A stretch of 58,354 nucleotides of DNA from Bdellovibrionales bacterium (GTDB lineage: Bacteria; Bdellovibrionota; Bdellovibrionia; Bdellovibrionales; UBA1609). Numbering within the stretch: position 1 is the stretch's first letter; every line of letters starts with the position of its first letter. Below are positions 10,281 to 36,800 of the stretch, piece by piece. The notes beneath the pieces were generated by a model. That model was not told the origin of the DNA. It did not search any database and saw nothing but the letters and a program-made list of their open reading frames with translations. The DNA is taken from the NCBI GenBank assembly GCA_050246815.1, contig JBFWVI010000018.1:1-58354 (forward strand), written 5' to 3'. A program made the position numbers and the translations under genes.

Positions 10281-10789
10281 AATCCAACCTCAATGGTGTT
10301 ACTGCCTGCATCTTGGTTCAGTATATTATTGATATTATTAAAATTGTTATCGTTTTCCCCTCGGTCGCCGGTAATACAGCCGTTGGAACCGCCCTTCCTC
10401 AGATGCAGATTGAAACCACCGCGATTCATGTTCAGGCGATATCCGATTCTCGACAGAAGACCTGGATCAAGAAACCAATCGCGTGCATTCGCTCCTGGTA
10501 CTTTCGTGATGTCGTACTTCCCGATAGGAATCGGTCCACCTTGGTAACCCGTCGATCCAGGATCGTTATTCCCGCTAAACATATTGGCACTTCCTGTCGA
10601 GCTTCCATCGTTGCTTGTGCAACTCAGTCGGCCTGTGCTGATGCTGTATGTGCATCGAGCGAGTCCTGACGGGTCGACCCAATTCACGGGGTCATTGGCA
10701 ACATACCCAAACAAATTCGTATCACCACCACCAAAGAGAATTGGGTCTTTCGATGTAAAGCGGCCTGTTTCTGGATCATAATCTCTTGC
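10277..10789 (-). pseudogene. Orphan Rhs C-terminal cassette 1: core end + Tlde1/DUF2778-like toxin domain
   Basis: [40 protein letters not shown], then GPIPIGKY and RGGFNLH....SNGCI. Rhs homology stops at about 10789. Confidence 0.85.
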
Positions 10790-10896
10790 TCTTTCAACCG
10801 CCACATTCATTTTAATAATCATAACCTGTTTATTTCGATTTGGAAGCACTTTGAGCGAACTGATTTTTTTAATAGTCCCGAATTTTTCTAATTTTT

Positions 10897-10916
10897 AGCC
10901 ACGGATTCTGGCACGA
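10897..10916 (+). repeat. Left-end tandem GGCACGA-type site of element 1
   Basis: AGCCACGGATTCTGGCACGA; the units begin 123 and 135 bp from the core at 10775. Confidence 0.7.
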
Positions 10917-11072
10917 CGTATTTCGGCCTCTCCAAAAACCTTCAGAAAATTTCGCGGAAAATTTTTTTTATATTTGGGACGGCACTTTGGACGAAAACGC
11001 ACTGTGTATTATTCGAGGGGTTTATGGCGTATAGGTAGGGCCAAACCCGATAGAGCGTTAAAGCAATAGATT

Positions 11073-11408
11073 CTATTTTGGTCGATTTCGATAGGCTTCA
11101 GCGAGCATATATTTAAATGGGCTACCCTTCGTACCACTGCCTGATCGCACAATGGTCCCGATCTCAACCAAAAACTTCACGTAGCGCATAACCGTTCGTT
11201 TTCTAAAACGCACAAGTTTTAGTAATTCATCCCGCGTGAGTGGTTTATCAGTTAAAAGGCGCATGGCCTCCATTAGAATGTCTCTCATCACAAGTTTACG
11301 CTTTTTACGTTTCAGCGCGAAAAGTGGATTGTCGCCATGTTCTTCAAAAATTCCTGTCAGTCTTATGGTCATTGGGCACCTCACCAAAGATAAGATTCTT
11401 GCTCCCAA
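11073..11408 (-). CDS. Small basic winged-HTH-like protein
   Basis: LTRDELLKL...RTVMRYVKFLVEIG.I.R.G.G.KGSPFKY pattern; start uncertain. Confidence 0.5.
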   Translation of the reverse strand: MGARILSLVRCPMTIRLTGIFEEHGDNPLFALKRKKRKLVMRDILMEAMRLLTDKPLTRDELLKLVRFRKRTVMRYVKFLVEIGTIVRSGSGTKGSPFKYMLAEAYRNRPK

Positions 11409-11498
11409 CGACGCTTTTAAAAATTTTTAGAAAAGATCACGTCTGCATAGGGTAAAAATGCAAAATATCCTGGGTCCGAGGATTCTTGGTCCGAAGCT

Positions 11499-11708
11499 TT
11501 ACTTACGTTTTCTTTCTGCGTGGACGAACTGATCGACCGCGTATTGGATTACATCTGTTTTATTCCAGCCCTTGGCTTTGGCGACCTCTTCTATTTCTTC
11601 GATCAAGGCCTCAGGTAAACGCAAAGAGACCATTTTACGGTCTTTGTCATCCGTATATTTAAACTCTAGCTCAGGTCGTTTTGGCAGCGTTTTAAATTGA
11701 TTCGCCAT
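11499..11708 (-). CDS. Ribbon-helix-helix (CopG) regulator
   Basis: MVSLRLPEALIEEIEEVAK..GWNKTDVI..AV; counterpart of 23717-23899. Confidence 0.8.
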   Translation of the reverse strand: MANQFKTLPKRPELEFKYTDDKDRKMVSLRLPEALIEEIEEVAKAKGWNKTDVIQYAVDQFVHAERKRK

Positions 11709-11746
11709 ACTCCATTATATTCTGCCTAGGTCTTTTTTTGCAAGCA

Positions 11747-11768
11747 ATGTCAATACGTGTATTGACAT
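11747..11768. promoter_or_regulatory. Inverted repeat (operator) overlapping divergent -35 boxes
   Basis: ATGTCAATAC-gt-GTATTGACAT; contains TTGACA on both strands. Confidence 0.6.
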
Positions 11769-11811
11769 GTTAATACGTTGCGTTATTATATGTATAACAG
11801 TCGGAGGTCCT

Positions 11812-12144
11812 ATGAGAACCACGAACCTAGCCATAAAACAAACAGTTACCGCGAGTGATATTTCGCAGGTCTTAAGCCTTCGTAGAACCTATGAAGCGCA
11901 AAAGCGCCGCCTTGAAATCGCGGAAACCGCTTTAAATGAACTAGAGCGCGCCATCATTCAACGTATTCAAAATGGCGCTACGGTTATCTGCGCATTTGAA
12001 GTGGCCGTTAAATCAATAGAGCGGAGAAATGTTGCGTGGAAGTCCGTCACGGCAGAACTGATAGGCCATGATGCCACCGAAGCCATCTTAGCCAGTACAA
12101 CGCCGACTATTTCTTATAGACTACTCATTAACAAGGGCGAGTGA
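11812..12144 (+). CDS. Hypothetical phage-like protein
   Basis: GGAGG RBS before ATG 11812; coiled-coil N-terminal half; overlaps the next gene. Confidence 0.6.
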   Translation: MRTTNLAIKQTVTASDISQVLSLRRTYEAQKRRLEIAETALNELERAIIQRIQNGATVICAFEVAVKSIERRNVAWKSVTAELIGHDATEAILASTTPTISYRLLINKGE

Positions 12145-12782
12145 CCGTGGACTTGCCCTTTCAGGGTGCAAAGCCCAAAAAGTTTATTCTTTATTTAAGA
12201 GTCTCGACGCTGGAGCAGAACACAGACCTCCAGCGTCTTGAACTGGCTGACTATGCACAAAAGCGCGGCTGGGAGTATGAAATACTTGAAGACAAGGCCA
12301 CGGGTAAAAACGCGAACCGCCCTGCGCTTAAAAAACTCATGCAGCTTGCTCAGATGCGTAAAATCGACGGCATTGCAGTCTGGAGGGCTGACAGATTATT
12401 TCGCAGTTTGAAAGAGGCCGTGGTGACATTGAGCGCACTCACCGAAATGAACGTCGCCTTTTACAGCCACAAAGATGGAATAGATTTGTCAACTTCTCAC
12501 GGCAGGCTATTTTCGCATTTACTTTTTGCTTTGGCAGAATTTGAAGGTGAACTCAATAAATCACGCGTGATTGCAGGATTACACGCGGCCAAGGCTCGCG
12601 GCGTTCGCTTGGGCCGTCCACAAGTCATTACCCAAGAAATTATCAATGAAGTTTTAAACCTTCGGCAAAAGGGCATCTCAATTCGCCAAATCTCAGAAAT
12701 GCTTGGCCGTCGCGTGAGCAAGACGTCGATAGAGCGCATTTTACGCGACTCCAATAATCCATCCAAAAAGGTGGGTATATGA
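12141..12782 (+). CDS. Serine recombinase (resolvase/invertase) with C-terminal HTH
   Basis: YLRVST..Q, RPAL, DRLFRS and G.RLGRP motifs. Confidence 0.92.
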   Translation: MTVDLPFQGAKPKKFILYLRVSTLEQNTDLQRLELADYAQKRGWEYEILEDKATGKNANRPALKKLMQLAQMRKIDGIAVWRADRLFRSLKEAVVTLSALTEMNVAFYSHKDGIDLSTSHGRLFSHLLFALAEFEGELNKSRVIAGLHAAKARGVRLGRPQVITQEIINEVLNLRQKGISIRQISEMLGRRVSKTSIERILRDSNNPSKKVGI

Positions 12783-12920
12783 GACGCTTAAATTCATTTG
12801 CCCGACTGATTTGGTCAACTGTCCAAGACACTCATCAAACTTTAGTTTTTGAGGCAAAGAACCAGCCACGTCCAGTCATTGAGAATTTTTCAACTGAAAT
12901 TGATTCGGTTGGGCCAGTGA

Positions 12921-13283
12921 TTGATTGGACTTAACCAAGCTATGGAAAAGACGAAACTATCATTGATGGCACTAACTCTTAGGAACCAATTAAAACTGCT
13001 CCTTGAGCGGCATGAGATGACTGCGGCCCAACTCAGTCGCAAAAGCGGCGTGAGTCAGCAAGTGCTGTCAATATGGCTTCGCGGCGGTGAACCTAAGAAA
13101 ATGAATCAAGTCAAAAAAGTCGCCGACGTATTTGGTGTGAGTGTTGACCAACTTTGTTTTGGCAACGGACTCGATAGCCATTCTCAACGCGTAACAGAAC
13201 TCGATGCCCTGCTTGGCGAAGACCAATGGGTTGGCGGTTTGTTCGAGGTACGGTTTAGACGAGTTAAAGGAGGCGCAAAATGA
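12921..13283 (+). CDS. XRE-family HTH regulator
   Basis: MTAAQLSRKSGVSQQVLSIW...VADVFGVSVDQL.FG; counterpart of 24066-24398; start uncertain. Confidence 0.82.
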   Translation: MIGLNQAMEKTKLSLMALTLRNQLKLLLERHEMTAAQLSRKSGVSQQVLSIWLRGGEPKKMNQVKKVADVFGVSVDQLCFGNGLDSHSQRVTELDALLGEDQWVGGLFEVRFRRVKGGAK

Positions 13284-14404
13284 ATTTAGTCCGAATCATA
13301 TTCATGGCACTACTGCTGATGGGATGTGCTTCAACTCCTGAAAAAACTGGCATTGAAGGCAAAGCTGTAGAAATTCAATCGTTCCCATCGGAAACATGGG
13401 ACGGCAAAACCATCGAATACTTATCAATCATTAAATTCCCTTCGCTGGCGGGAAAAACCAAAAAAGAAGCCGAGAACATCAGGCGGTTATACGTTCAGAT
13501 GGGTCTTAAAAAAAGTTTCCAGTTTTTGTTTCGCATCGTTAAGTACGACCCTACCGCAATTCAAGCGACCTATTCTGGCTCTTGCGAAGACCTCGCGCCA
13601 CTTAAGCAAAAGACTTGCCCGATGACAAAAATGTCCACGGGCGAGAAAAATCTCGACTTCAGCGCATGGAGTGAATTTATCAAATTCGCAGAGCCTCTAC
13701 CTAAATCGACAGATGTGAGAATTAAATATGTCGAGGACCGCCTTCTAAATTTTGAAGACATTCCGATTTTGACTTCAATAAAAGATAGCGACGGCAATAT
13801 GATGCCAACGGTGTATTTTGCTCCCGATAAAATTGTACCCGATCATTATGACGGCTTTTTAACGACGGAATTTCAAGCGGCGGAATACGAAGGCCAAATA
13901 AAGATCAATGACAAATACGACGTGCGTTTCGAACTCCCATCGGCGGCGATCTTTGTCCCTTTGGATAAAAAAGCTGATGACAGAATCACGCTAATTGCAC
14001 CGCACGAAAAGTTAGCAAATTTGTTCCATAAGAGCGCACCGAATTTATCGACTGCGTTTCTTGCGAAAATGGACAGCGAAATCTCAAAGAAGTTAGAACC
14101 GTATTCCATCGCGTTGGCCAGCGGCGGCGCTGACGGCGGGACCATCATTACGAATTTGATTCAGGATGAATTGTATAATCAAGACGAAGACTCCTCTTCT
14201 GAAGTCCGTATGCCAAGTTGGATCAGCGACGTGGATATTCCCCGTGGGAAGGCCGTTTTTTGCTATCTGCTCCTATATGCAGCAAAAATAGAAGCTGAGC
14301 GCCACAAAGAAGATGGCTTAGTTGTCTTTAAAATTTCAGTGAACATGGATGAGCTTTTACGATTAGCGAAGGTGGAACCTTATGAAAAGCATATGGAAAA
14401 ATAG
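13280..14404 (+). CDS. Hypothetical lipoprotein
   Basis: Lipobox LLMGC; GGAGG RBS. Confidence 0.7.
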   Translation: MNLVRIIFMALLLMGCASTPEKTGIEGKAVEIQSFPSETWDGKTIEYLSIIKFPSLAGKTKKEAENIRRLYVQMGLKKSFQFLFRIVKYDPTAIQATYSGSCEDLAPLKQKTCPMTKMSTGEKNLDFSAWSEFIKFAEPLPKSTDVRIKYVEDRLLNFEDIPILTSIKDSDGNMMPTVYFAPDKIVPDHYDGFLTTEFQAAEYEGQIKINDKYDVRFELPSAAIFVPLDKKADDRITLIAPHEKLANLFHKSAPNLSTAFLAKMDSEISKKLEPYSIALASGGADGGTIITNLIQDELYNQDEDSSSEVRMPSWISDVDIPRGKAVFCYLLLYAAKIEAERHKEDGLVVFKISVNMDELLRLAKVEPYEKHMEK

Positions 14405-15077
14405 TATTTCCGTGCTCATTGCTTTGTTTTCTTGCGTGGCCCAGGCTGACGAACTGGACACCCATTTGGCCAAACTAAAAAAGGTCGTCGAAAAAGATGG
14501 CCGCTGCGAGTTTGCAGTAGCCCAAATCCCCACTGGAAACCATCGGACATCAGAATCTCTTTGGCCTAAGTCAGTCGCTTGCCTTGGTGACATTGTCGTC
14601 AATGAGGGCACTATGCGCGAGAAGTCAGGATGCGCCGCCTTTTATCTCGACACTTACACACTGCGAACAAGTGGCGTCGGCACCGAGGGTCGCATGAAAA
14701 TTGCCAACGGTAAAAAGTGCGCGAGCGATGGGCTTGAGGAGGTCACTGGTCTCAACCTTCAAGGGTACGTCGATGAAAAAGCTGGATCATTTAACGGTGT
14801 ACCAAATTTAGATGTCGGCTGGGTTTTCTATGATGGCAGTCGCACAAATTTTATGACTCCAACTATCGTTTACTCGAAAAGCAGCCAAAGATACGAAGCG
14901 TGGTGGAATCAAAAGCGAAAAGAAGTGATTGCTCAGAATAAGGCCCTGGCGGAAAAGAGAAAAGTTGAGGAGCGGCAAGCTCACGACAGCGACTTAGCCG
15001 AACAGCGCAAATTGAATGAGGAGAAAATTCAACAACGGAAGAAAAACAAAGAAGCTGAAGCCCTCTGGAAAGAGTGA
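14382..15077 (+). CDS. Hypothetical secreted protein with a C-terminal coiled coil
   Basis: Signal peptide ending AQA; paired cysteines. Confidence 0.65.
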   Translation: MKSIWKNSISVLIALFSCVAQADELDTHLAKLKKVVEKDGRCEFAVAQIPTGNHRTSESLWPKSVACLGDIVVNEGTMREKSGCAAFYLDTYTLRTSGVGTEGRMKIANGKKCASDGLEEVTGLNLQGYVDEKAGSFNGVPNLDVGWVFYDGSRTNFMTPTIVYSKSSQRYEAWWNQKRKEVIAQNKALAEKRKVEERQAHDSDLAEQRKLNEEKIQQRKKNKEAEALWKE

Positions 15078-15086
15078 GGAGGTCGC

Positions 15087-15569
15087 GTGATGCCGTCTCC
15101 TGATGAACTTTTAAGCCGATTTGTCGAAATTCAAGTGCTTCAAGGCAATCCCGAAGCAATTGCTTATTTTGAATCATTGGATTCGATTTCTCAGAGCCTT
15201 TTACTTGCGGGTGTCGAAGAGCCAATCATTAATGAAATCTTTAATGACAAGTCGGTGCCGCTGCACACATTGAGGCGCATTGCTAGTAACTGGCCAATCA
15301 GCGAAAAGTGGCGGTGCATTTTTACGGAGCGCCTTAGCAAGGCGGCAAATCAAAATACCAAAACAAAAGACGCATACGAGATTCTTGGCATTGGCAGCGA
15401 TGCTTCTGAAATTGAAATCAGCGTCGCATACAAAGACGCCATCAAAAAATACCACCCCGACCGAGTGGCAAACTTGGGCCAAGAACTACAAGACCTGGCG
15501 GAACAAAAATGTAAAGAAATTAACGGCGCATACGATCTCATAAAAAATCAGCGCCGTTCCGCAGCTTAA
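15087..15569 (+). CDS. Protein with a C-terminal DnaJ domain (DjlA-like)
   Basis: DAYEILG...AYK..IKKYHPDR...KEINGAYDLI. Confidence 0.85.
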   Translation: MMPSPDELLSRFVEIQVLQGNPEAIAYFESLDSISQSLLLAGVEEPIINEIFNDKSVPLHTLRRIASNWPISEKWRCIFTERLSKAANQNTKTKDAYEILGIGSDASEIEISVAYKDAIKKYHPDRVANLGQELQDLAEQKCKEINGAYDLIKNQRRSAA

Positions 15570-15583
15570 AACGGGAGACGTAC

Positions 15584-16042
15584 ATGGACCAACGAAAACC
15601 CAGTGAATTGGAAATCGTTATAGACAAAATGCTTGGCGACTTGCAGCTAGATTTAACTAGTGCAAAGCATGTCACCGCTACAGGCGTAATATACAATTTT
15701 CTGTGGGATGACCGTCCTTTTTTTATATCGTTTCCGCCGACAATGCCGAACACCTATTCGCATGTTTTTAGAATGGAGATAGAAATTGCAGAGCTAAATG
15801 AAGCCGATGCTGGCCGCATACTTTACGAAATTGCACTCTACGTACATGTGCATGACTGCACTTTGATTCGTGTGGTCCCAAAGCCAAGCACTAACCGAAC
15901 AATCAAAGTTTTACTCCAAGTGGTTGGCTTGGTTGACTGGCTAAAGCCAGAGTTCATTTCAGATGTCGTCATCAATATGGCCGACCTTGCAATTTATTTC
16001 CGCGACACGATGACCGAGAGAAGCCAAAGAAAGACGGCGTGA
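15584..16042 (+). CDS. Hypothetical protein
   Basis: 152-aa ORF with RBS, in the same operon as the DnaJ gene. Confidence 0.6.
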   Translation: MDQRKPSELEIVIDKMLGDLQLDLTSAKHVTATGVIYNFLWDDRPFFISFPPTMPNTYSHVFRMEIEIAELNEADAGRILYEIALYVHVHDCTLIRVVPKPSTNRTIKVLLQVVGLVDWLKPEFISDVVINMADLAIYFRDTMTERSQRKTA

Positions 16043-16061
16043 TGCTCACTCAATCTATTAT

Positions 16062-16565
16062 TCAGGAATTATCTCTTAGCATAGCGAGGTCTTTTAGCTC
16101 CTGTGTGCACTCCGCTTTTAGTGAGTTAAGACGCTGTTGCACCATGCGCTGATGTTCCATCTGCCATCTTGTATTGGTTGGCGCGAGGCTTTCTTCTAGA
16201 ACACGCTTAATCGTCGATTTATTAAACCCGCTCGTATCAACCGTGATTTCGATATTTTTGCCAATCACTACAATTTCGGCATTCACTCGCCCTGCAATTT
16301 GAGGATGGCTTCGGAACGAACGCTCAAGCTGCATTCCGAAGTCTTGGTCGATGTTATGCTTTGCCTTGTACTTTAGGCTTGTCTTGCCCGTCTGTGACTG
16401 GTCAAGTGCTGGATTATCTAAGTCCACCTGAAGTGTTGGCGGAACCGTTTCATTGGCAATTTTGTCGTCGTAATATGTTTCAATCTCGACCTTAGCCGCG
16501 TCGAATCCGCTTGGACTTTTTAGGTCGTGCTTCTTAGACATTTGAATTGCGAGTTTTCCCATCAA
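16062..16565 (-). CDS. Hypothetical protein
   Basis: 167-aa ORF with GAGGTG RBS. Confidence 0.55.
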   Translation of the reverse strand: MMGKLAIQMSKKHDLKSPSGFDAAKVEIETYYDDKIANETVPPTLQVDLDNPALDQSQTGKTSLKYKAKHNIDQDFGMQLERSFRSHPQIAGRVNAEIVVIGKNIEITVDTSGFNKSTIKRVLEESLAPTNTRWQMEHQRMVQQRLNSLKAECTQELKDLAMLRDNS

Positions 16566-16686
16566 ACACCTCGCTAGGTTATCGGTTTTCGTGATGGCGC
16601 TCTAAACAGCACACGGCAGCAAGTGACCGATGAGACATGAGCGAGACAACAAGCGCTCGTGAGCGCATTAGGACACATTCAGCTAA

Positions 16687-17592
16687 TCAAGAGTATTTGA
16701 GCCTAATCGCGTTTTCCAAACGTTTACGAACCTGATCTGGGGTTTCATGTGGCTGAAGACGGCCAAAGTAATCAGGTCCCAAACGTCGCATTACGATGTC
16801 GTCGTTCGCCGCCTGAAGCTGCAAGAGTTCTTGCTCTAAGCGAAGACGCTCTTTTTCTGCAAAGGCAGCTTCATGAGGCCGTAACTTTTCTATTTTTTTA
16901 CTATTGGCAGCTTTTTTCCTAATCTTATCCAGTTTCAAAATTTGCTTTTTAGTCAGGTATGCCAATGGTTCGCCAACAATGTTCGCAATAAATTCCTGGT
17001 CATATTCATCAAGAGATTTGGACTGAGCCAATGATTCAAATTCAGTTTCATCAAGACCAATAGCCATTGGTTCTGCTTCGCTTTTTTCTTCCTTTGGCTC
17101 CTCCCTTGAAGACGTAGGATTTTTGTGTCCAGTAGCAGTAGCGATTACATTTGGTTTATATTTGTCGTTTACATCTGGTATTGGTTCCACCGCTTGAGGG
17201 CTTGGATTGCCTTGTTTGGTGAAATCCATTTCCCCATTTGGTGGAACGCTTTTTTCTCCAGAAACAGCGAGACTCGAATCGTCGTTGATGGTGTACCAAC
17301 ATGTTCTGTCGTAACGATGTCGGTTGAAGTTACCCTTCAAAATGGCTCCTTGAGCGACAAGATTGTTTAAAATTGTTTCGATTTGTTTTTCAGTCCAATA
17401 GGAAAAAAGCTTTGCGAAGTCTTTCACTGAATTGAAGGTCCAATAGCGTCCCTCTTTTAAGTGCATTCGTGACTGCTTAGCTTTGTTGTGGTCTGTCCAG
17501 AATCGTAAATTCTAAAGCATGATAGCTTCGGCAACGCCGTATTTGATGGCGTCTTCACGTGAAAAAACATGTTTTATTTCTTGGGTATCCAT
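16687..17592 (-). pseudogene. Phage-type replication initiator (N-terminal HTH) interrupted by an in-frame TAG
   Basis: Reads MDTQEIKHVFSREDAIKYGVAEAIML*NLRFW...GRYWTFNS..F.YW.EKQI...GNFN...YDRTCWYT. TAG at 17512-17514; RBS before ATG 17592. Confidence 0.75.
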
Positions 17593-18031
17593 AGCTATCC
17601 TTGCCCGTATTTAGCGAGCGCCTGGGTTGGTGAAGCGCGTCCGCCAACCCTCGGCAAGGAAGCTACTTCATATAGCTATATCACATTCAGATTGCGCCTT
17701 TAGGCTTTAGCGTCTCATTTTGAGACAAATGCCTGACAAAATTGATCGACTATAACTATATGAAATCATTTAACTATTGCAAATTTTATAAATGCTGCTA
17801 AACTGGTTTCAGATAGGTCGTTAAGAGCGATTTACCCAGCAAAGAGTTTTCTAAAAAAGAAGCTCGCCTCTCTTGGGTCATTTAATCCAGAGAAAAATTT
17901 AATTTTGAAACAAAACTTCACGCAATGGTGCGTGAGGTAACTGAACCCGTGTGTCCGCAAACGCGGATCGCACGACAACAATTTAATCGCCCATTTTAAG
18001 CAGACTTGCAGGGCGTAAAGCGAGGCTAAAT

Positions 18032-18415
18032 ATGCAACAACCATCCGTATTGTCCATACTGGACAGCATCTCAGTTTATGGGACATTGAGATCCCATCAA
18101 ACCAACGAGTATAACAATCAACATACGTCGCCAGTGAGGGCCGTCCCAAAAAGTCGCCTACGACTTATTGCGGATGCGCCCATGCTGTTGACGGTTCGGC
18201 AGCTAGAGGCACTGTCAGGGCTAACGGTCGGTAACATCTATTCGTTCATACGAACAGAGCCGACTTTTCCCTATGTAAATGTTGGCAAGAAAAAGAAGTA
18301 CTTGATCGATAAAGAAAAATTTTTTGCGTGGCTCGATAAACGTTCAGCCACAGACAAATCAGAACGCTTCAACTTATCAAGTGCCAACCAGTTAATTTCG
18401 AGGTTTAAAAAATGA
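18032..18415 (+). CDS. Excisionase/AlpA-like HTH protein (element 1)
   Basis: LLTVRQL...GLTVGNIYSFI..PTFPYVNVGKKKKYLID...AWL; overlaps the integrase start. The true start may be further downstream. Confidence 0.78.
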   Translation: MQQPSVLSILDSISVYGTLRSHQTNEYNNQHTSPVRAVPKSRLRLIADAPMLLTVRQLEALSGLTVGNIYSFIRTEPTFPYVNVGKKKKYLIDKEKFFAWLDKRSATDKSERFNLSSANQLISRFKK

Positions 18416-19443: not shown

Positions 19444-19455
19444 AGAGGAGAATTT

Positions 19456-20439: not shown

Positions 20440-20463
20440 TCAGGACGCTAGCCGCGCCTTCTC

Positions 20464-26546: not shown

Positions 26547-26687
26547 GACGCAGTAGCGCTATCATGACAGTTGATTTCCGTACATATCCGCTTCAATGGG
26601 CTTCCTTTTATTTCAAGCTCTGCGCTTGCGCCCACTCCTGAGAAGCTGCTTGGCCAATAACTGTTATTATTGTAATTTCCCATTATA

Positions 26688-27698: not shown

Positions 27699-27811
27699 AT
27701 ATATTCGATATAGCATAAACTTGTGGTTCAAATTTTGCCCTATCCCACTCGGAATGTCAGACTGGTCAATTGTTGTTAGTTCTGTTGTTAACCCAACAGG
27801 AGGAACAAGGG

Positions 27812-28009
27812 ATGAGTACATTAAAGCAAATACTGCAAGAGAAGGGCGTAAGCCAAATTGAATTGGCCAAGCAGATCGGCGTCGCCGATTCAGCGGTTTC
27901 AAAGTGGATTAAGTGGGGGTTCAAAATCCCTTTTAAGCACAAAGCGAAAATCTGTGCGGCATTGAACTGCGAGTTGTCTGATTTAAACGATCGAGGTGAC
28001 AATGCGTAG
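27812..28009 (+). CDS. Small Cro/XRE HTH protein
   Basis: LKQILQEKGVSQIELAKQIGVADSAVSKW; AGGAGG RBS. Confidence 0.82.
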   Translation: MSTLKQILQEKGVSQIELAKQIGVADSAVSKWIKWGFKIPFKHKAKICAALNCELSDLNDRGDNA

Positions 28010-28991
28010 TCTCGATTTGAAAGAGATAAAGCTCCTGGCCAATGGAAGATGGTTTGAGATTCTAAACAGTCATGGAATCGCCATTCAGTTTTTAAATGGG
28101 AAAAATGGCCCCTGTCCGATATGTGGCGGCAATGACCGCTGGCGCTGGGATAATAAAAATGGCGATGGTGGGGGCTTGTGCCATCAATGCGACCTAAGAG
28201 GCTCGGGCCTTTCGATACTCGGTAGATGGTTGAACCTCTCAAGCCGCAAAGATTTTCCGAAGCTACTAGAAATCATCGCAAACACTATCCGCGCATCTTG
28301 GCCCGTCGTTCCACGGCGCGTTCTGGATGAAGAATCAAAATGCAAATATATGCGCAGTCTTGCCTTAAAGTTGTGGCACAGCACACAAGCCTTAGCGCCG
28401 AATGACACGGCCTCAGTTTATTTGAAAAATCGCGGTTTAACTTCGCACTTAGGTATAAAAGCCCTTAGAAGCCACCCAAATTTAGAGTACCGCAAAAATG
28501 GTAAGATCATTGGTAAATTCCCTGCACTGGTAGCGAAAGTTACTGACGTCCAAGGAAAATTTCTAGCAATCCACCGCACGTTTCTTGATCCGTCGGGCGC
28601 AAAAGCAAATGTGACGGAAGTTAAAATGATGTTAGGCCCAGTTGACGGCGGTTCGGTTCAATTCGACCACGCATCGGAAGTTTTGAACATTGCAGAAGGT
28701 ATTGAAACTGCACTCGCTGTCCGCGAACTTTCAGGCGGACCAACATGGGCCGCGATGACGGCGGGCAATCTTGAAAAGTTAGAAATCCCGAATTCCGTAA
28801 AAAAAGTTACGATATGGGCTGACCTTGATCCAAACAAACGCGGTGAAAAAGCGGCCCACGCTCTAGCCCGCCGTCTTTACCATCTTGGCGTTCAGACCAT
28901 AATTAAACTTCCCGAAGCACAAATGAACACAGAAAAATTGGATTGGCTCGACATTCATTTAGACCAGTCTGGAAGCCCCCATGTCGGATAA
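28002..28991 (+). CDS. P4 alpha-type zinc-binding + TOPRIM primase
   Basis: GPCPICGG.DRWR.D...C..C, YL..RG, IHRTFL, AEGIETAL and WADLD motifs. Confidence 0.88.
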   Translation: MRSLDLKEIKLLANGRWFEILNSHGIAIQFLNGKNGPCPICGGNDRWRWDNKNGDGGGLCHQCDLRGSGLSILGRWLNLSSRKDFPKLLEIIANTIRASWPVVPRRVLDEESKCKYMRSLALKLWHSTQALAPNDTASVYLKNRGLTSHLGIKALRSHPNLEYRKNGKIIGKFPALVAKVTDVQGKFLAIHRTFLDPSGAKANVTEVKMMLGPVDGGSVQFDHASEVLNIAEGIETALAVRELSGGPTWAAMTAGNLEKLEIPNSVKKVTIWADLDPNKRGEKAAHALARRLYHLGVQTIIKLPEAQMNTEKLDWLDIHLDQSGSPHVG

Positions 28992-30480
28992 GGACAAGCC
29001 TTGGGAGCCCGCAGAAGCAAAGCACTTAGAACCAAAGTTGCCATTGTTTCGAGAGATGCCGCCTGCCAAGCCATATCCGCTTTCGGCATTAGGGGGCCTG
29101 TTACAGTCAACGGCGATGACAATGAAAGAAGCCATTCAAGCGCCTGATGCGCTTTATGGTCAAAGTCTTCTCGGAGCCGCGTCACTCGCCGTTCAAGGGC
29201 ACGCGGACGTTTTCATAGATGGCCGCACTTTTCCCATATCTCTTTATCTGCTTTCGATCGGCGTGTCCGGCGAGCGAAAATCATCAGTCGATAGAGTGGC
29301 ACTCGTTCCGCATCTGAAAATTGAAAAGCTTCGTATGGCTGTATACGAAGAGAAAATGCAGCGATATGTAAACCGACATCAGGCATGGGAAGAGGCGCGA
29401 CGACAAGCTCTATCCAAAAGATCGCGAAAGGGCGATCCTACTTTAACGGTCGAGCAATGCGAAAATAAATTGCAAGCCGTCGGCCCAAAACCGCAAAAAC
29501 CGCTGACACAAATGCTCCTTATCGACGAGCCGACATTCGAGGGCCTACAAAAAATGCTGCTAGAAGGTCAGCCGAGCGTTGGTCTATTTTCTGACGAGGG
29601 TGGCCGTATGTTCGGCGGTCACGCCATGAATTCTGACAACCAACTCAAGACAATCTCCGGGTTTAGCAAATTTTGGGATGGATCGGCGGTGCCGCGTGTG
29701 CGGTCCGGTGACGGCGCAACGAAGATATACGGCAAACGTCTTTCGCTGCATCTCATGATTCAACCCGGAATTGCCGCCCAAGTTACAAACAATCCCGTTC
29801 TAATTGACCAAGGTTTTTTATCGCGTTGTTTGATCGCGCACCCCGAATCAACGGTCGGAAGTCGATTGTACAAAGACATCGACATTTCTGAAGCTCCAGA
29901 AATTGTCCGATATATCGAAACGATGACAAAGCTATTGAACGTTGAAATGCCGATGTTGAAAGACAAGACGAATGAACTAAATCCACGTCAAATTATGCTT
30001 GCGTCGAACGCGAAAAATTTATGGGTCTTATTTCATAATTGCGTTGAAGAACAGATGGCCGACGGTGGGCACTATGCTAACATTCGAGGTTTTGCATCGA
30101 AGGCAGCGGAGAACGCTTTAAGAATTGCTGCCGTACTCGCACTGATTGAAACACCCGATGCTCCTGAAATTTCTTCGTCTCAAATCGAATCGGGAATAGA
30201 GCTTGCTGATTTCTACCTCTCTGAAGCAGTTCGTATTCATGAAGCGGCAATACTAAATCCTGATCTGTATCTCGCTCAAAAACTATCAGGCTGGTGTCAA
30301 AGATATGATGTGGTTCATCCCACTTTTATTTATCAGTACGGTCCAAACGCAATAAGAGATAAAGCTATCGCACAAAAACTTATAAAGATTTTGGAGGAAC
30401 ACGCGCACTTAAAACGAATTCCTGACGGCAAGAAAATTGACGGCAAATGGCGCTCCGATGCATGGGAAGTTGTCAAATGA
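28981..30480 (+). CDS. DUF3987/YfjI-family replication protein
   Basis: SGERKS, T.EGL, FSDEGG, WDG, IQP and GFLSRCL motifs. Confidence 0.85.
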   Translation: MSDKDKPWEPAEAKHLEPKLPLFREMPPAKPYPLSALGGLLQSTAMTMKEAIQAPDALYGQSLLGAASLAVQGHADVFIDGRTFPISLYLLSIGVSGERKSSVDRVALVPHLKIEKLRMAVYEEKMQRYVNRHQAWEEARRQALSKRSRKGDPTLTVEQCENKLQAVGPKPQKPLTQMLLIDEPTFEGLQKMLLEGQPSVGLFSDEGGRMFGGHAMNSDNQLKTISGFSKFWDGSAVPRVRSGDGATKIYGKRLSLHLMIQPGIAAQVTNNPVLIDQGFLSRCLIAHPESTVGSRLYKDIDISEAPEIVRYIETMTKLLNVEMPMLKDKTNELNPRQIMLASNAKNLWVLFHNCVEEQMADGGHYANIRGFASKAAENALRIAAVLALIETPDAPEISSSQIESGIELADFYLSEAVRIHEAAILNPDLYLAQKLSGWCQRYDVVHPTFIYQYGPNAIRDKAIAQKLIKILEEHAHLKRIPDGKKIDGKWRSDAWEVVK

Positions 30481-30703
30481 ACGCCACCGCATCGCTAGTT
30501 CTGCTATTCCCGCTATCTTTTGACGTTAGTTTAGCAACAATCGCGGGAATAGCAACCTCTCGCCGCTGCCGAAAACTATTGGTAGATTATCCGAGCGCTA
30601 CACAAATCTGCGATTTTCCAACCGCTTTTTTAGGCACTCGCGCACCTTTACCTAGAGAGACTTACGGAACGCTGTTAAAGCCTAATCACGAATCGGGTCC
30701 GCT

Positions 30704-30973
30704 ATGCTGCCTTTAACTAACCTAAGACTCGTTGCATGCGGTCTGGTGAGCGTGAAGGCACTGGCCGGCCAATACGGAATCGCAAAGAGCACCTTGTATG
30801 AGCTGATTAAGTCGGACCCAAATTTTCCGTACAAGAATGTTGGATTAAAGAAGAAGTTCATGATCGATGTGGCTGAATTTGAATCATGGCTGACCATGCG
30901 AACGCAAAAGCAAAAGGGGGAAGCGTTCAATTTACCACCTGCAGATGAACTCTTAAGGAGACCGAGAAAATGA
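30704..30973 (+). CDS. Excisionase-like HTH protein (element 2)
   Basis: Homologous to the 18032 ORF (PNFPYKNVGLKKKFMID); overlaps the integrase start. Confidence 0.78.
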   Translation: MLPLTNLRLVACGLVSVKALAGQYGIAKSTLYELIKSDPNFPYKNVGLKKKFMIDVAEFESWLTMRTQKQKGEAFNLPPADELLRRPRK

Positions 30974-32004
30974 GAGCTTTAAAATTTGGCGTCTATCCAA
31001 TTCAAGGCGGCCGCTTTGAAGCCTCTTACATTAACCCGGTCACAAATAAGCGTCGCCGCCATAAGTTCGACAAGCAAAAGGATGCGGTTAAGTTCAAAGA
31101 AAGTATTGAACGCCAGCTGGTAACCAAGAATTATGGGTACTTTCATGATACATATGTTGGCCAGCTCATAGACAAGCATTTAAAAGATTACCCCGAATCA
31201 AAGCTACGGGATCGGCAAAATGTTTTCACGTCTTTTTACAACGAGTTTTCTCGCTACAAAATGAGCGCACTCACGCACTACCCGCTAAAGGCGTGGTTTG
31301 ATAAAATTCGGGAGCAAAATAACTACTCCGAGCGAACTCTTAATACCATCAAGTCCCAAATAAATTGGCTTTTTCGTTCACTGATTGATGAGGGATTAAT
31401 CGAAGAATCTCCACTTAGAAAAATTAAATTTAAACGCATTGTTCCGCCTCGCCGACCACGAGTAATTTTGTCAGTCGATGAAGTGAATCAAGTTCTTAAA
31501 AACGCCAAGATGTTTTCGCTTGATGGTCTTTATCCTTACCTTGCAGCTGTGGCCCATACCGGCGCCCGTCGTAGTGAGATCTTGCGCCTTACAAAAGCGG
31601 ATATTGATTTCGCCACCAATCTTATCCAAATCAGAAGATCAAAGAATGGGCGTGAGCGCTTCATTCGCATGTCGCCCACACTTGAACGTGTCTTAAAAGA
31701 GCGTGTGCAAAATCAGGCTGGCGACAACCTCTTTACCAATGAACATGGCACAAAGCTGGATTCAAATAAGGAACTCACACGCATCATGAATAAATTTAAG
31801 GCGTTCTTTCCAATCGAAAAAGATTGGGGCTGTCATGCTTTAAGGCATTCATTCGCCAGAAACTTTCTGATGCAAGGGCGGCAAATGTACCAACTTCAGG
31901 CAATTTTGGGACATCGAAGCATCGATGTGACCGTTGATCTATATGGCCAGCTTGAAGCTCAGTGCATTTCTTGTCCATCACCTTATGAAGTGGAAACCGA
32001 ATAA
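30970..32004 (+). CDS. Tyrosine recombinase A (element 2)
   Basis: TGARRSE, KNGRER, HALRHSFA and LGHRSIDVT.DLY motifs; colinear with the 18412 protein. Confidence 0.93.
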   Translation: MRALKFGVYPIQGGRFEASYINPVTNKRRRHKFDKQKDAVKFKESIERQLVTKNYGYFHDTYVGQLIDKHLKDYPESKLRDRQNVFTSFYNEFSRYKMSALTHYPLKAWFDKIREQNNYSERTLNTIKSQINWLFRSLIDEGLIEESPLRKIKFKRIVPPRRPRVILSVDEVNQVLKNAKMFSLDGLYPYLAAVAHTGARRSEILRLTKADIDFATNLIQIRRSKNGRERFIRMSPTLERVLKERVQNQAGDNLFTNEHGTKLDSNKELTRIMNKFKAFFPIEKDWGCHALRHSFARNFLMQGRQMYQLQAILGHRSIDVTVDLYGQLEAQCISCPSPYEVETE

Positions 32005-32985
32005 ATGGCCGTTCAAGTGAACACTTGCATGTTAAAAGATGGGACAATGTTGGCTAGCTACACCCATCCGCTAACGAAAAGAAAGGTACGTCGAACATTT
32101 GCATCAGTTCTTCAGGCCAATGAATACAAATTAAAAATCGAGAACCAGTTTTGTGCGGCCGATCTTACCAGCTACTGCAATATGACTTTGGAAGAGTTAA
32201 TGGTTTTATTCCTCAGCGAAAAACCAACAAGTACATTCTTCAAACTGCGCATGCACCTCATCGACTTCACTGAAACCTTTGGCCACATGTTCGTTTACAA
32301 CATAACCCCCGACATGCTTCGCAACTGGCTTGATCAAGTCCAGCAGGAAAACAAGCTCACCGATATGAGTATGCGGAGCTTAAAATGCACATTGGATCGC
32401 TTGTTTGATTTCCTAATCGAGAAAGAAATCATCTCCGAATCGCCATTAAGAGAAATCTACTATCGGAAAACGCCAGCAGACGCCATTACCCGTAATCATT
32501 TACCATCGCATGAGATTGAAAAGCTGCTTGAGGCCATTAAGAAATATTCACCAGGCTACCTTTACCCCATTATCAAGTTGTTCTCAGAAACAGGCGCAAA
32601 GGTCACTGAAGTTGTCGAGCTTAAATGGAGCCAAGTCGACTGCGTAAAACGCTCAATACGCCTCGAGGGCACCGACCGTAGCCAGCCCCGTCTTGTGCCT
32701 ATCTCTGAAGAACTGGCGACACTCTTATCAAAAGCTCAGCGTGAAACCGGCGTGGTGTTTAAGACTTTTTATCGTGAGCACTTCACTCGCGTAAAACTAA
32801 CCCGAGCAATAAATGAATTCAAAGCGCGTGGATTATATCGGCGCAACTGGAACCTACTAGACCTGCGCCACTCCTTTGGAGTTAATTTTCTTGCTAATGG
32901 CGGCAATCTACGCGATTTGCAGGCGCAGATGGGTCACGGCAACATCTTCGAGACAAAACGCATCTACGGCGATATTACGAAGTAA
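32005..32985 (+). CDS. Tyrosine recombinase B (element 2), altered catalytic motifs
   Basis: TGAKVTE, LDLRHSFG, MGH.N...TKRIY; colinear with the 19456 protein. Confidence 0.88.
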   Translation: MAVQVNTCMLKDGTMLASYTHPLTKRKVRRTFASVLQANEYKLKIENQFCAADLTSYCNMTLEELMVLFLSEKPTSTFFKLRMHLIDFTETFGHMFVYNITPDMLRNWLDQVQQENKLTDMSMRSLKCTLDRLFDFLIEKEIISESPLREIYYRKTPADAITRNHLPSHEIEKLLEAIKKYSPGYLYPIIKLFSETGAKVTEVVELKWSQVDCVKRSIRLEGTDRSQPRLVPISEELATLLSKAQRETGVVFKTFYREHFTRVKLTRAINEFKARGLYRRNWNLLDLRHSFGVNFLANGGNLRDLQAQMGHGNIFETKRIYGDITK

Positions 32986-33017
32986 TAGAGCCTCATGGAT
33001 AAGCTGTGATTCCCAGC

Positions 33018-33386
33018 CTATACCTTTCTACTTCCCTTGCATCCAGTAATCTGAAAATTAATACAGCCCCAAAATGGTTTCCATTTTTGCCCAGCTTTTG
33101 GCTTTTTTAATTTCATTGGCCCATTGCATTCAGGACATTGCAATGTTGAATCGGTCTTTAAATATTTAACCGGACCTGATTTGGAAATAATCTCGGCACG
33201 CTCTTTTCGATCTGCCTCACGACGCTCAAGTTTATTCCGCTTACGCTTCAATAAGGTATTTTTGCCGGAAACAAAACCCATAAACTTTGCCTCCATTAAG
33301 ATCTGCGTTCTTGATCCATCGGATCTTTCATCATCAACAATGACTGCACTTTTGCAGTGATTTTTGTTGATATGCAAAGATCCCAA
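33018..33386 (-). CDS. Protein with a topoisomerase-type C4 zinc finger
   Basis: CPECNGPM.LK......FWGC.NF...C; start uncertain. Confidence 0.7.
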   Translation of the reverse strand: MGSLHINKNHCKSAVIVDDERSDGSRTQILMEAKFMGFVSGKNTLLKRKRNKLERREADRKERAEIISKSGPVKYLKTDSTLQCPECNGPMKLKKPKAGQKWKPFWGCINFQITGCKGSRKV

Positions 33387-33427
33387 TCCTATTTTTATCC
33401 AAATTTTCCGAACTATTTGAATTTTTA

Positions 33428-33447
33428 TGGCACGATTTAGGCACGAT
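33428..33447 (+). repeat. Tandem GGCACGA site abutting immunity gene 3
   Basis: TGGCACGATTTAGGCACGAT, 11-bp period, 3 bp from the stop codon. Confidence 0.82.
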
Positions 33448-33450
33448 CAT

Positions 33451-33810
33451 TTAGCTCAGATGTTTTTTAATAAACTCGTTCCACGTTATTGGGCCCAATT
33501 TACGCCGTTGGTAGGAATGAAAAATAGCTGCGACGAGTCCGAAGAAAATGCCGCACACAATACTAGGTATTGCTATTTGATTGAGGGCGCGATCACTCCA
33601 TGCCGTAAAATGCATGAACGTCCCCCAAGAAACTCCAAAAAAAACAGCCGCCAATAGCCCATGAACCCATGCTGACCAGAAAATTGCTGGGGGAACCTCA
33701 ATTCCCATTTTCTCAATAAGCCATTCATGAGGCGCGGGGCTTGTGGTTTTGGACCAGCCCTTATTCTTAGAGTACTCTCGCCAACGGCTTATACTGTCAG
33801 AGTGGCCCAT
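33451..33810 (-). CDS. DUF6404-like two-TM protein, probable immunity protein for the active tip
   Basis: MGI.VPP..F.S, FFG..WG.FM and Y.RRKLG...W pattern; directly after the Rhs gene. Confidence 0.7.
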   Translation of the reverse strand: MGHSDSISRWREYSKNKGWSKTTSPAPHEWLIEKMGIEVPPAIFWSAWVHGLLAAVFFGVSWGTFMHFTAWSDRALNQIAIPSIVCGIFFGLVAAIFHSYQRRKLGPITWNEFIKKHLS

Positions 33811-33878
33811 TGATTTTCTGCTCCTTCATATAACTTATAATAAGTTTAACTCAATACTTCTCAACTGTTAACTCATAT

Positions 33879-36800
33879 TCATCTGCACATAGGTGGCTGT
33901 TCGATTCGCGGCGATTGAAAGTATGGAGGCAGAGATTGCGGCCGCGACAAAGGTGGCTCCGAACCATACGCCGGAGGGATAAAGCCTCCGACATGAGGCC
34001 CAAGTACGCCTCCTATGGTTCCACCAATGAGCACTCCTGCTATCGCTCCGGCCCCTGTACCAAATCCGGGGTTAATATAGGTGCCGTAATAAGCACCATA
34101 AGCGCCGCCGCCAATTGCGCCACCAACAATGCCTGCGATTTGATCGCCAGTTAAAAATAATCCTGTCGGATCAATGAAGTTGATTGGGTCATTTAATACG
34201 TAGCCATAAAGGTTGGTGTCGCCACCACCAAACAGAATCGGATCTTTACTAATCCATCTTCCTATTTCTGGATCATAATCCCGAGCACCTAAGCGTAAAA
34301 GTTTGGTTCCTGGATCATACAATCCCCCCGCAAACCCAAACGGCTGGAAGCCCGGGCTCGTGTCCATCGTCACGTTGCCCCACTCGTCGTAATCCATAGC
34401 CTGAGCGATAGCGCCCGTCGTAGCGTTGATCACTAGACGAGGGCTGCCCAGATGATCCGTGATAATTCGGTAACGGATGCCTGACCTGATCATCATATCA
34501 GGCGCATTGCCCTTAGAGGCGTAACCGAACATCGAAATAATATTGCCCGAACCATCTAGCTCGGCAAGCGGACGAAGCTGATCGATGTAAAGCCAACTGC
34601 GCTCCATCACGCCGTTTACAACACGAGCCACTCTGCGGTTTAGACCATCGTACTTGTATAAAATCACAGTGCCGCTGGGTAAAGTCACCGACTTCAAATT
34701 GCCGAAGGCATCGAAGCTGTTACTGGTCACTTGACCTGTCAAGGTATTCACTTTGCTTTGCTGCTCGCCATTCGTGTTAAATCCATACGTGATTGCCCCA
34801 AATGAAACTATCCTGTCTTGGGAGTCGTAAGTCGCCGCCATTCCATTAATGGATGTACGGTTTGAGTTGGCATCGTAAGCATAGCTGCCAACCACGGCGC
34901 CGTTGCGCATCACCTGCGTCAACCTGCCCGTGCGATCATAGGTGTAATCAAATGTATTCGAAGCCCCACCCATAAAACTTTCTACTTTGCGTGAAAGGCG
35001 GCCCAAATTGTCACGAGTGTAAGTGATATTTAAACTGGGCGCGGAATAGCTGATGATCTCACCAAAACTATTGTGACCGTAGGTGTCGCTGACCGAGCCC
35101 AATGCGGATCCGGTGATCAAACCATTGGCCGTATTTCGCGTCAGATTCAACTGATCCACGCGGATCAATTCCTCATCTAAACTGTAACCCAGATCCATGG
35201 CGTGGTTATCATCGTTATTTAAAGTGTATCGACCATGGTGAAGTTCGCGGTTAAAGTCGATGCGGATGTTGCCCACCACGTCGCCGCTCCAGGTGTAGCC
35301 CCACGGAATCGCATAGGGGTTTAGCGACACAAACAAGTTCACATTGTCCGCTGAAGCATTGGCGGTTTCGATGCGCTTTTGATTGTATGAAAAACTTAGT
35401 GATTCGCCGGTTGAAGCCAGCACGCCCGTCAACAAGGCCCCTTGCGCGTAGGCATAATCCAACACTTTACCGTCGGGACGGATGGCCCGAGTGACTTGAC
35501 GATCTAAGTTGTAATTATAAACTGTGCTCACGGTTATACCGCCACCCAGCAGGGGCGGCAGGTATTCACTTGGCTCATCTGCCACGTTATAATTAAAACC
35601 ATGCACCGGACGGCCCGGCGGCGTCACGCCGGTCAGATTACCATTGTTGTCATAGTTAAAACCAATCACCCGGCCGTCATCCAGAATCTGTTCGACCACG
35701 CGGCCCGAAAGATCATAGTTAAACGACGTCACCTGATTTAAAGAATTGGTGATCGAGCGTAAAAATCCTTGGGCATTGTAGGTGAAGCTTGAAAACCTTG
35801 CCCCCTGCTGTTGGTTGATCAAACGGCCACGAGGGTCGTAATCCATCGACACTGGTGTTAACCCGCCGAATTGAATCTGCACGGGCTGCTGTTGCGGGCT
35901 ATAGACCACACTTAAAACACGATTCAACGGCGTTTGCAGCGTTTCTGTGCGCACCGATGAATCGTAGGTCTGGTGATAGGTGCGCGGAACGTTGCTGACT
36001 TGACTTTCTAAGGTCAAAGAGTCCGCTTGAACGTAATTAAATAAACTCAGTGGCTGAGGGTAAGTGACTTGCCGGGTTTGCGTGCTAAAACGCACAAAGC
36101 CAGTTTGAATCTGCAAGGATTGATTTTGGTTGAACGCCGCGCTTAAACCAAAACGCGGGTCTTCGGTGGGAACAGAGGTGGTGCGCAGCCCGCTGCCGAC
36201 AGAAGCGATTCGTGTTCCATCACTGCCAATTGTGTGCTCTTCAATAAAGCCATCAGGGTGCACACGAGAAATCAGTTGCTGCCCCGAACCCACTAAAGGC
36301 TCGGTCACGTTTGAGGCGAACACACGGCCCTCTGCCGTAGTCTCTTGCACGGTGGACAAAAGGTTGATGGTGTCGAAGGTTTTTAAATATTCAAAGAACC
36401 CGCCAAAATCATTTTCGTCGCGGGTCAATTCACCTTTGGCATTGTAATAAAACCGCGAGGCATTGCCCTTGGGCTTCTTGAATTCCGCCAATAAACCCGA
36501 GGCATGATACTGCATTTCGTAGCGTTGGTTTTGAGGACTTGTCAACGCAGTCAACTGACCATTGCCGTTCACGCCCAAATTGGTCTCTTGGCCATCCGGC
36601 GCGGTTATGCGCGAGGGACGCCCCAAACTATCCCGCGTGATCACGGTCGCGGCGCCAAAAGCATCGCGCACTTGAATCAAAAAACCCCCGACGTCGTATT
36701 CAAAGCCATGCTTCACCGCGCCCGTGCGCGCGAAAAGCGTATTCAAGTGGCGACCGTTTTGGTCGAACTCGTAAAGCTCTTGGCCGTCTTCTGAAGCCAA

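Follow-up and report, generated by a model that had tools for sequence, protein, structure and literature searches.

A candidate tyrosine-recombinase crossover site for the exchange of Rhs tips in a Bdellovibrionales bacterium

The 58,354-nucleotide stretch of contig JBFWVI010000018.1 from a Bdellovibrionales bacterium (assembly GCA_050246815.1), here called the window, contains an intact Rhs/teneurin-like gene (33879–40484, minus strand; 2201 amino acids), followed by two stacked elements, A (23455–34279; 10,825 bp) and B (10783–23454; 12,672 bp), each of which carries a pair of tyrosine recombinase genes, intA and intB. The 8-mer ATCATAAT is found in the Rhs gene and at two orphan Rhs tips, and a preliminary description of this DNA proposed that tips are exchanged in frame across it. 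We consider it highly likely that a site-specific, tyrosine-recombinase system swaps Rhs tips by crossing over within this motif, a reading supported by the clustering of breakpoints at related loci, a sharp step in sequence identity at position +2 of the site, the divergence of closely similar element ends at the same base and a join implied in one sequencing run.

The origin of new tips of polymorphic toxins is a long-standing question, for which homologous recombination is the standing model. The finding offers a candidate enzyme family, a base-precise site and signs of natural rearrangement, and the question of tip exchange is therefore testable by a two-plasmid assay. It also connects the turnover of toxins with satellite-like elements of predatory bacteria that have been little studied, and domain libraries might be built with a recombinase able to join protein ends in frame where homology is nearly absent.

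The Proposed Crossover Motif

Positions in the site are numbered on the strand of the Rhs gene, counting from +1 at the start of the codon that follows the core Arg (a D, H or Y codon), and ATCATAAT occupies +2 to +9. On that strand the motif reads as AT, TAT and GAT across the D/H-Y-D codons of the Rhs core. An exact search of the window placed it at 10775–10782, 23447–23454 and 34272–34279, the three places already described, and the homology of both orphans to the intact gene begins there. Two further copies had been missed, one at 22204–22211 inside a gene for an OLD nuclease and the other at 49825 on the minus strand. The five matches compare with 1.72 expected, and 3 of 100 shuffles also reach five. 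Of 41 full or long-core Rhs copies from elsewhere, 11 have the same 8-mer, which is the commonest form of these codons there, and the probability that three random Rhs cores share an 8-mer is 0.016. Because the D-Y-D codons are conserved, identity of the 8-mer is only suggestive by itself, and in view of the chance counts its significance on its own was rejected.

The real signal is the abrupt onset of homology at the motif. Upstream of it, orphans 2 and 1 match the intact gene at only 10 and 13 of 60 bases, respectively, and downstream at 58 and 60 of 90. The intact gene and orphan 2, as well as orphans 2 and 1, are exactly identical over +2 to +9 (8 nucleotides), while the intact gene and orphan 1 are identical over +1 to +16 (16 nucleotides); the shared core of 8 bp put forward earlier thus stands for two of the pairs and is too short for the third. 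The homology of orphan 1 was also said to reach the preceding Ala-Arg codons, which is true at the protein level only, as the codons differ and 6 of 12 nucleotides match. With identities this short, there is indeed little room for RecA-type exchange. Joining 34272 with 23447 and 34272 with 10775 gives open reading frames of 2212 and 2236 amino acids, respectively, so both of the proposed products are in frame.

Probable Position of the Exchange

Across 46 pairs of orphan and full gene, system-weighted identity is about 0.3 upstream, 0.28 at -1 and 0.54 at +1, and then climbs to 0.90 at +2 and 1.0 at +4. At codon -1 both partners encode Arg in 37 of 51 pairs with an identical codon in only 10, while same-residue codons are identical in 27/27 cases at codon 0 and 46/50 at codon +1. 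Orphans that share the same element end (91–100% over 90 nucleotides) first differ at +2 in all three such pairs. The identity step and the divergence of the element ends therefore fix the left border at +2, the first base of the motif. Non-coding flanks of orphans retain A at -3 and G at -2, a conservation that may mark a binding half-site for the recombinase; the Ala-Arg likeness of orphan 1 is accordingly better attributed to retention of such a half-site than to longer homology.

On the right the data do not fix a border. All of +2 to +9 is shared by 31 of the 51 orphan/full pairs, +2 to +8 by 35 and +4 to +6 by 46; among 14 orphans at element ends, 6 share all eight bases and 12 share +4 to +6. 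An identical 8-bp core, proposed as a general rule, was rejected for the family on these counts. Dyad symmetry is best about +5, where G at -2 pairs with C at +11 in 0.9 of cases (the mean is only 0.33). A dyad centered on +5 with a border at +2 therefore predicts an overlap of 7 bp (+2 to +8), which is weakly favored within the earlier estimate of 7–8 bp. Tolerance of mismatches is known for Tn916-type integrases, and by analogy mismatches in the overlap may be tolerated here.

Breakpoints at Related Loci

Among 400 other genomes of Bdellovibrionota, 19 have relatives of IntA; 18 of these also have an Rhs core, vs. 124 of the 400 overall, a comparison in which related genomes do not count as independent. 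After de-duplication there were 77 IntA loci, of which 42 with less than 2.5 kb downstream were dropped; at 28 of the 35 counted, a convergent Rhs junction lies within 6 kb. The junction set was drawn from 180 hits, from which 4 were dropped and copies cut by contig ends were excluded, leaving 72 distinct orphan junctions and 41 full or long-core junctions from 48 systems.

Second Rhs copies at integrase loci (n = 58, from 24 systems) have protein homology upstream of the site for no more than 5 codons in 45 cases, for 6–19 codons in 5 and for at least 20 codons in 8, and the shortest class spans 18 of the 24 systems. Among 27 control copies, 3 from E. coli K-12 and 24 from Bdellovibrionota loci that lack an intact IntA-family gene, the corresponding counts are 3, 2 and 22. 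Alignment of the junctions with homologous loci, a check proposed in the preliminary description, thus shows breaks that cluster at the motif rather than the scatter across the Rhs core that it had named as contrary evidence.

These counts also bear on classical C-terminal displacement, in which RecA- or microhomology-driven exchange would take place within the core, the orphans would be trimmed later and the 8-mer would reflect conserved codons. Displacement would suit the prevalence of the 8-mer among Rhs cores, the long-core copies at some integrase loci and the arrays that are at least 90% alike for 40–50 nucleotides past the site. Trimming, however, would not end at a single base across 18 systems, nor would it make the same element ends diverge at +2; exact identity in the window is limited to 8–16 nucleotides, and the join implied in run X1 (see below) uses eight shared bases. 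Control orphans retain 22–315 core codons in 22 of 27 cases (54–315 in E. coli), while long, variable and near-identical core copies, the hallmark of displacement, are not seen in the orphans of the window, which have only 0–2 homologous codons upstream of the site. We regard displacement as very improbable at this locus.

Several observations weigh against a site-specific system driven by IntA. The controls were taken from a list ranked by best E-value, which is biased toward long copies; three of them come from genomes that have intA, and IntA-like remnants lie close to three. Eight of the 58 second copies at integrase loci keep 41–599 core codons. Two arrays, in genomes G058 and G360, share the breakpoints with no IntA-family gene nearby; they came to light once the controls had been counted and would increase that number. 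In the G058 array (L208–L209, G058:C6:568845-581700), 11 short orphan tips, whose left flanks resemble those of locus L049, are followed by a different, co-directional tyrosine recombinase of 327 amino acids, and a full Rhs gene was not detected directly upstream. In G360 (L210–L211, G360:C1:2001858-2009839), a full Rhs gene and seven short orphans with breaks at the same site are accompanied by a Fic-like gene inside the array (so labeled by reading of its sequence) and an IS3-like transposase gene after it; no IntA-family gene was found within 35 kb.

The largest arrays hold up to 9–11 minimal tip-immunity cassettes at the same kind of site. At L043, L049 and L050, rows of 5–9 cassettes with open tips stand beside a lone integrase gene, without cargo, and all nine cassettes of L049 share a left half-site of 7 nucleotides that the full gene lacks.

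Other loci depart from this pattern. At the control Rhs loci L188, L189 and L190, which have long-core orphans, partial IntA-like remnants face the tips. In G162 (L038–L039), long-core copies of 274–290 codons flank the recombinase pair, and each has the arm-like repeat roughly 1 kb ahead of its junction, so that these loci may belong to a branch of the family that targets a site further up the Rhs gene. At L035 and L130 the full gene and the orphans are on opposite strands, so that recombination would invert rather than excise, or else the contigs are mis-joined. At L196 a lone short orphan of the site type (13095) sits amid long-core copies in a genome that has no IntA hit at an E-value of 1e-30.

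Recombinases and Putative Arm Sites

The catalytic set R-K-H-R-H-Y is complete in 52 of 53 IntA sequences and in both copies in the window, which match Phage_integrase above its cut-off. In IntB, the last Arg, His and Tyr are kept in 21 of 21 sequences and the first Arg in only one; given this nearly constant loss, IntB is probably a weak or structural partner of IntA, and it is missing at many IntA loci. A profile search for IntA returned 97 proteins at an E-value of 1e-30 or better. In the genome contigs, relatives were recovered with an alignment and not with a single IntA sequence. Against solved structures IntA has generic Xer/Int matches only. No close relatives were found on plasmids, where the best matches are 24–27% identical, or on viral contigs, where two loci reach 26%.

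A repeat of the form GGCC-n7-GGCC with an 11-bp period lies 134–169 nucleotides before 19 orphan junctions and recurs, in a single orientation, about 110–170 nucleotides behind the recombinase genes. The repeat of the window is a GGCAC variant, whose strict pattern occurs three times in the 3.4-Mb genome, always at this locus. These repeats may be arm-type sites of the recombinase. Speaking against that role, the repeat is present at only 20 of 72 orphans, with the cassette rows of L043, L049 and L050 among those that lack it, and a profile derived from the other loci gives a low score in the window (11 bits), with 108 matches above 8 in the genome. In run X2, a contig from another organism has an intB-like end (window 32929–32985) followed by a match of 26 nucleotides to the repeat (33421–33446), so that this sample may also contain a related element.

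IntA is the predicted enzyme of the site. The site could also be real and be acted on by another recombinase, such as a serine resolvase, the host XerC/D or an unrelated tyrosine recombinase, with IntA and IntB as passengers. A resolvase gene is indeed carried by both elements of the window, the G058 array adjoins another tyrosine recombinase and the G360 array adjoins none. A resolvase query, however, matched only 1 of 20 regions (L031–L050), the linkage of IntA to Rhs recurs with fixed orientation, and IntA is almost always catalytically complete. An overlap of 7–8 nucleotides suits the chemistry of tyrosine recombinases and not that of serine recombinases, whose overlap is 2 nucleotides, and so argues against a resolvase. 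Action by another enzyme is in our judgment unlikely.

A Rearrangement Implied in Sequencing Run X1

Four sequencing runs (X1–X4) were compared over 20600–40550, with the site at 10775 placed only through contig sizes. X3 and X4 cover only small shares of this region and are uninformative on the element. X2 has the region in one contig. In X1, a contig of 12,724 nucleotides ends at 23476, its start at 10753 being deduced from its size; a second contig, positioned through the OLD repeat that it contains, has its end at 10782; and a third starts at 23447. A contig of 52 nucleotides has 23447–23476 as its last 30 letters, the first 22 being inferred, and its length equals 30 + 30 - 8, given contig overlaps of 30 nucleotides. 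These contigs form a bubble whose short arm lacks 10783–23454, with a depth of 3.5 vs. 11.4, a ratio that is no measure of the share of cells. Together they strongly indicate chromosomes without the 12,672-bp element B, in which 10782 is joined to 23455 inside the 8-mer.

The joins that the preliminary description had expected, 34272 with 23447 and 34272 with 10775, are not seen in the four runs, and the one implied is a motif-bounded join of 23447 with 10775 that it had not listed. As evidence for active recombination this join has several weaknesses. The form without B may be a lineage that never had it rather than a product of excision, 22 of the 52 junction letters were inferred by size and not read, a library chimera is not excluded, and X1 may itself be a source of this DNA. 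Neither a circle junction nor an event at 34272 was found in the four runs, whose contigs drop rare forms. An empty site for element A was likewise not seen in them.

Proposed Mechanism of Tip Exchange

Based on these results, we propose that IntA, in many cases together with a degenerate IntB and an excisionase-like protein, may recognize a site in the conserved Rhs core, at the boundary between the Arg codon and the x-Tyr codons, some 40 codons ahead of the DPxG cleavage motif. A circle, which might also be transferred between cells, would carry in this order the element end, the site, and the core end with its tip and immunity gene. IntA would recombine the circle with the site in the Rhs gene, with one strand exchanged between +1 and +2. 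Because the site of the element precedes its own core end, tip and immunity gene, the Rhs gene would stay intact, keep its frame and gain a new tip, and the old tip and immunity gene would end up behind the element. Excision would reverse integration. Repeated integration would build stacks, here A, B and the remnant of a third element, and loss of cargo or capture of minimal circles would build arrays. Excision between any two sites would remove the DNA between them and would change the expressed tip if the first site were involved.

What such a system is for can be read in two ways, both compatible with the mechanism. The first is dedicated and reversible tip shuffling, in which the recombinase would capture cassettes from mobile elements and re-order a stored array. 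The second is that the elements are selfish and satellite-like and use the Rhs codons as a safe landing site in a mostly one-way process, with no switchable arsenal. Selfish elements would fit the satellite-like primase, helicase and small-terminase genes and the defense cargo, the absence of the putative arm repeat from 52 of 72 orphans, and the fact that the only implied event removes the inner element and leaves the expressed tip unchanged. They fit less well with the carried fragment, which each time brings a different toxin-type domain and a neighboring partner gene instead of a copy of the old end, with the arrays of 5–9 open-tip cassettes beside a lone integrase gene, or with the half-site kept by every cassette of one array and absent from its full gene. 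We hold the selfish reading to be possible, leaning toward doubt, and give dedicated shuffling a little short of an even chance. If shuffling is the case, a clonal population would switch the toxin delivered by Rhs while keeping the immunity genes for earlier ones, and the system would amount to an integron-like machine that handles in-frame protein ends and that in one branch has a tandem pair of active and degenerate recombinases. Clonal switching from stored arrays would make it a new class of toxin-diversifying system.

Elements A and B and Their Surroundings

Sequence and domain matches give the Rhs gene PKD, NHL, YD-shell and Rhs core regions. The architecture of an Rhs polymorphic toxin is present, namely the YD-repeat shell, the DPxG core, a variable tip and a small downstream partner gene. 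From the Rhs gene onward, each element has a tip, a small partner gene, a repeat with an 11-bp period, a back-facing recombinase pair with a helix-turn-helix (HTH) gene, cargo, and a second repeat 120–135 nucleotides before the next site. The guanine plus cytosine content is 0.445 in A and 0.446 in B vs. 0.52–0.54 in the flanks. Compared by rank, the A and B recombinases share 59% identity (intA to intA and intB to intB), and across ranks about 30%. The names of homologues point to Bdellovibrionota.

Site 1 (34272–34279, minus strand; attL-like), assigned by motif and alignment, comprises the D-Y-D codons of the intact gene. The current C-terminus, tip 0 (33879–34279, minus strand), is glycine-rich, extends 133 codons from the site and may have arrived with element A. 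It is followed on the same strand by putative immunity gene 0 (33451–33810), which matches DUF6404 and is assigned its role by position, and by the GGCAC repeat (33389–33447), a putative arm-type site between the immunity and recombinase genes. On the plus strand of A are intB (32005–32985), with a tyrosine recombinase fold in which the first catalytic Arg is replaced by Lys and His-II by Leu and the Tyr is kept; intA (30970–32004), with the complete set; an excisionase-like HTH gene (30704–30973; weak matches to HTH_17 and phrog_66); primase and DUF3987 helicase-like genes that resemble a satellite replication module (27996–30480); and a serine resolvase gene as cargo (25914–26546). A gene weakly similar to terminase small subunits (25414–25776, minus strand; E-value 6e-5) and a putative arm-type repeat about 130 nucleotides from site 2 (23545–23590, minus strand; 11.4 bits, the top minus-strand score in the window) complete A.

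Site 2 (23447–23454, minus strand) is the end of A and the start of B, the element apparently absent from part of the X1 population. There follow, on the minus strand, the glycine-rich orphan tip 2 (23021–23454), putative immunity gene 2 (22612–22974), which is small and hydrophobic, a putative arm-type repeat (22511–22569) and a gene for an OLD-family ATPase/TOPRIM nuclease, a defense-type cargo (20464–22416). Element B further has intB (19456–20439), intA (18412–19443) and an excisionase-like HTH gene (18032–18415) on the plus strand, a replication-initiator-like gene (16687–17466, minus strand), a serine resolvase gene (12141–12782, plus strand) and a putative arm-type repeat 120–132 nucleotides from site 3 (10898–10916, minus strand). 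The cargo genes at 13280–16042, 24399–25300 and 26688–27698 have no family match in Pfam or PADLOC; several have lipoprotein-like N-termini, and one has a DnaJ domain. A Pfam scan of the window gave no match to a relaxase or capsid protein.

Past site 3 (10775–10782, minus strand), the end of B, lie on the same strand orphan tip 1 (10277–10782), similar to Tlde1 and L,D-transpeptidases just under the Pfam cut-off; putative immunity gene 1 (9807–10280), Sel1-repeat-like with an N-terminal hydrophobic stretch (score 0.93); and a putative arm-type repeat (9730–9752) of a third, decayed element. A decayed remnant also lies there, as does a fragment of an OLD gene (9284–9389, minus strand; 88% to 22104–22209) that starts exactly at TATGAT. 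The start of the fragment at 9389 matches the position of the fourth 8-mer within the intact OLD gene (22104–22211 region), which suggests a scar of off-target recombination at the same motif, possibly by the same enzyme. A direct repeat of 60 nucleotides (88%; 8872–8931 and 9535–9594), which begins at the stop of an AI-2E transporter gene, encloses the fragment and a lone BrnA/CopG-type antitoxin gene with no partner toxin gene identified. The Rhs block (8878–40700), between the AI-2E gene and a bamD-like gene, is missing in three genomes of the same genus (74–96% complete), in which the flanking host genes abut and the Rhs core was not found; the whole 32-kb block was therefore acquired.

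Comparison with Known Systems

The locus resembles those of Rhs C-terminal displacement in having a full rhs gene followed by orphan tip-immunity pairs, with a new tip displacing the old one (PMC2935791; PMC3967940), and a circular intermediate has been proposed there. Jackson et al. (2009; PMC2935791) state that no integrase is known to accompany Rhs and name integrons as a precedent, and Koskiniemi et al. (2014; PMC3967940) propose recombination in Salmonella over 522 bp at 95%. Unlike in those accounts, the break here is at one base, homology is 8–16 nucleotides and a recombinase family is linked. Integrase-like genes near the Rhs loci of Snodgrassella and Gilliamella (Steele et al., 2017; PMC5727410) and XerC/D adjoining polyimmunity loci (Zhang et al., 2012; PMC3482391) similarly place recombinases near Rhs or immunity arrays, with a suggested role in cassette capture; the passages concerned give no site, breakpoint or mechanism. 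The accessible text of a 2026 preprint (10.64898/2026.07.13.738213) only mentions integrases that flank clusters. No description of a site-specific Rhs tip recombinase was found in a literature search that covered subscription journals thinly and in which supplements were out of scope.

Adjacent tyrosine recombinase genes, target specificity and a possibly degenerate member are described in parts of the literature on Tn554, RIT, SE and GInt elements (PMC10214605; PMC3414803). Those elements are set apart by description (Table 1 of PMC10214605), not by protein sequence: the window has a small HTH gene followed by two genes of similar size (344 and 326 amino acids), no large TnpB-type protein, trio or TnpC/Srap-type gene was seen here, an empty site is implied, and IntB is missing at many loci.

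Integrative elements that restore their target gene, such as islands in tRNA genes (PMC4383910), and phage satellites that do so share with the locus a tyrosine integrase, an excisionase-like gene, a short core at both ends, an element-borne restoring fragment, a size of about 11–13 kb, a primase/helicase module, defense cargo and tandem stacking. A tRNA island as such was ruled out, because neither a tRNA nor a tmRNA gene is present in the window. Unlike in gene-restoring elements, the restoring fragment here is a different effector domain with its partner gene, so that integration changes the action of the host protein, and two recombinase genes stand in tandem. Several features expected of a tyrosine-integrase element are seen, namely a catalytically complete recombinase, direct-repeat ends, a short shared core and a target gene restored with a different tip, as are some of those of phage-inducible chromosomal islands (PICI): a primase/replication module, a size within about 10–15 kb and no capsid genes of its own. 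The gene order of PICI-type elements served as the comparison.

Shufflons such as Rci/PilV use a tyrosine recombinase to invert segments between inverted sites, which are short and lie in the reading frame, and so to exchange the C-terminus of a single protein. The likeness to the present locus lies in the swapping of a C-terminus at short sites inside a reading frame. The three sites of the window, however, are direct repeats, and the tips bring partner genes and cargo. Direct sites therefore imply excision and integration, and inversion was rejected for the window, where all three sites are on one strand; opposite-strand copies occur only at L035 and L130. In integrons, promoter-poor cassettes are lined up next to a single tyrosine recombinase gene and are expressed from one position, which is also the layout seen here; unlike in integrons, the cassettes are gene ends fused in frame and not whole genes. 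An integrase of the IntI family was rejected, as TIGR02249 scores are 43–82 bits against a cut-off of 265, and so were attC-like hairpins, with z below -2 in only 4 of 71 and 6 of 72 junction windows and from -0.4 to 1.6 at the sites of the window. In its working the system is akin to a cross between a gene-restoring integrative element and a shufflon or integron, and it is neither a shufflon nor an integron by the features that define these.

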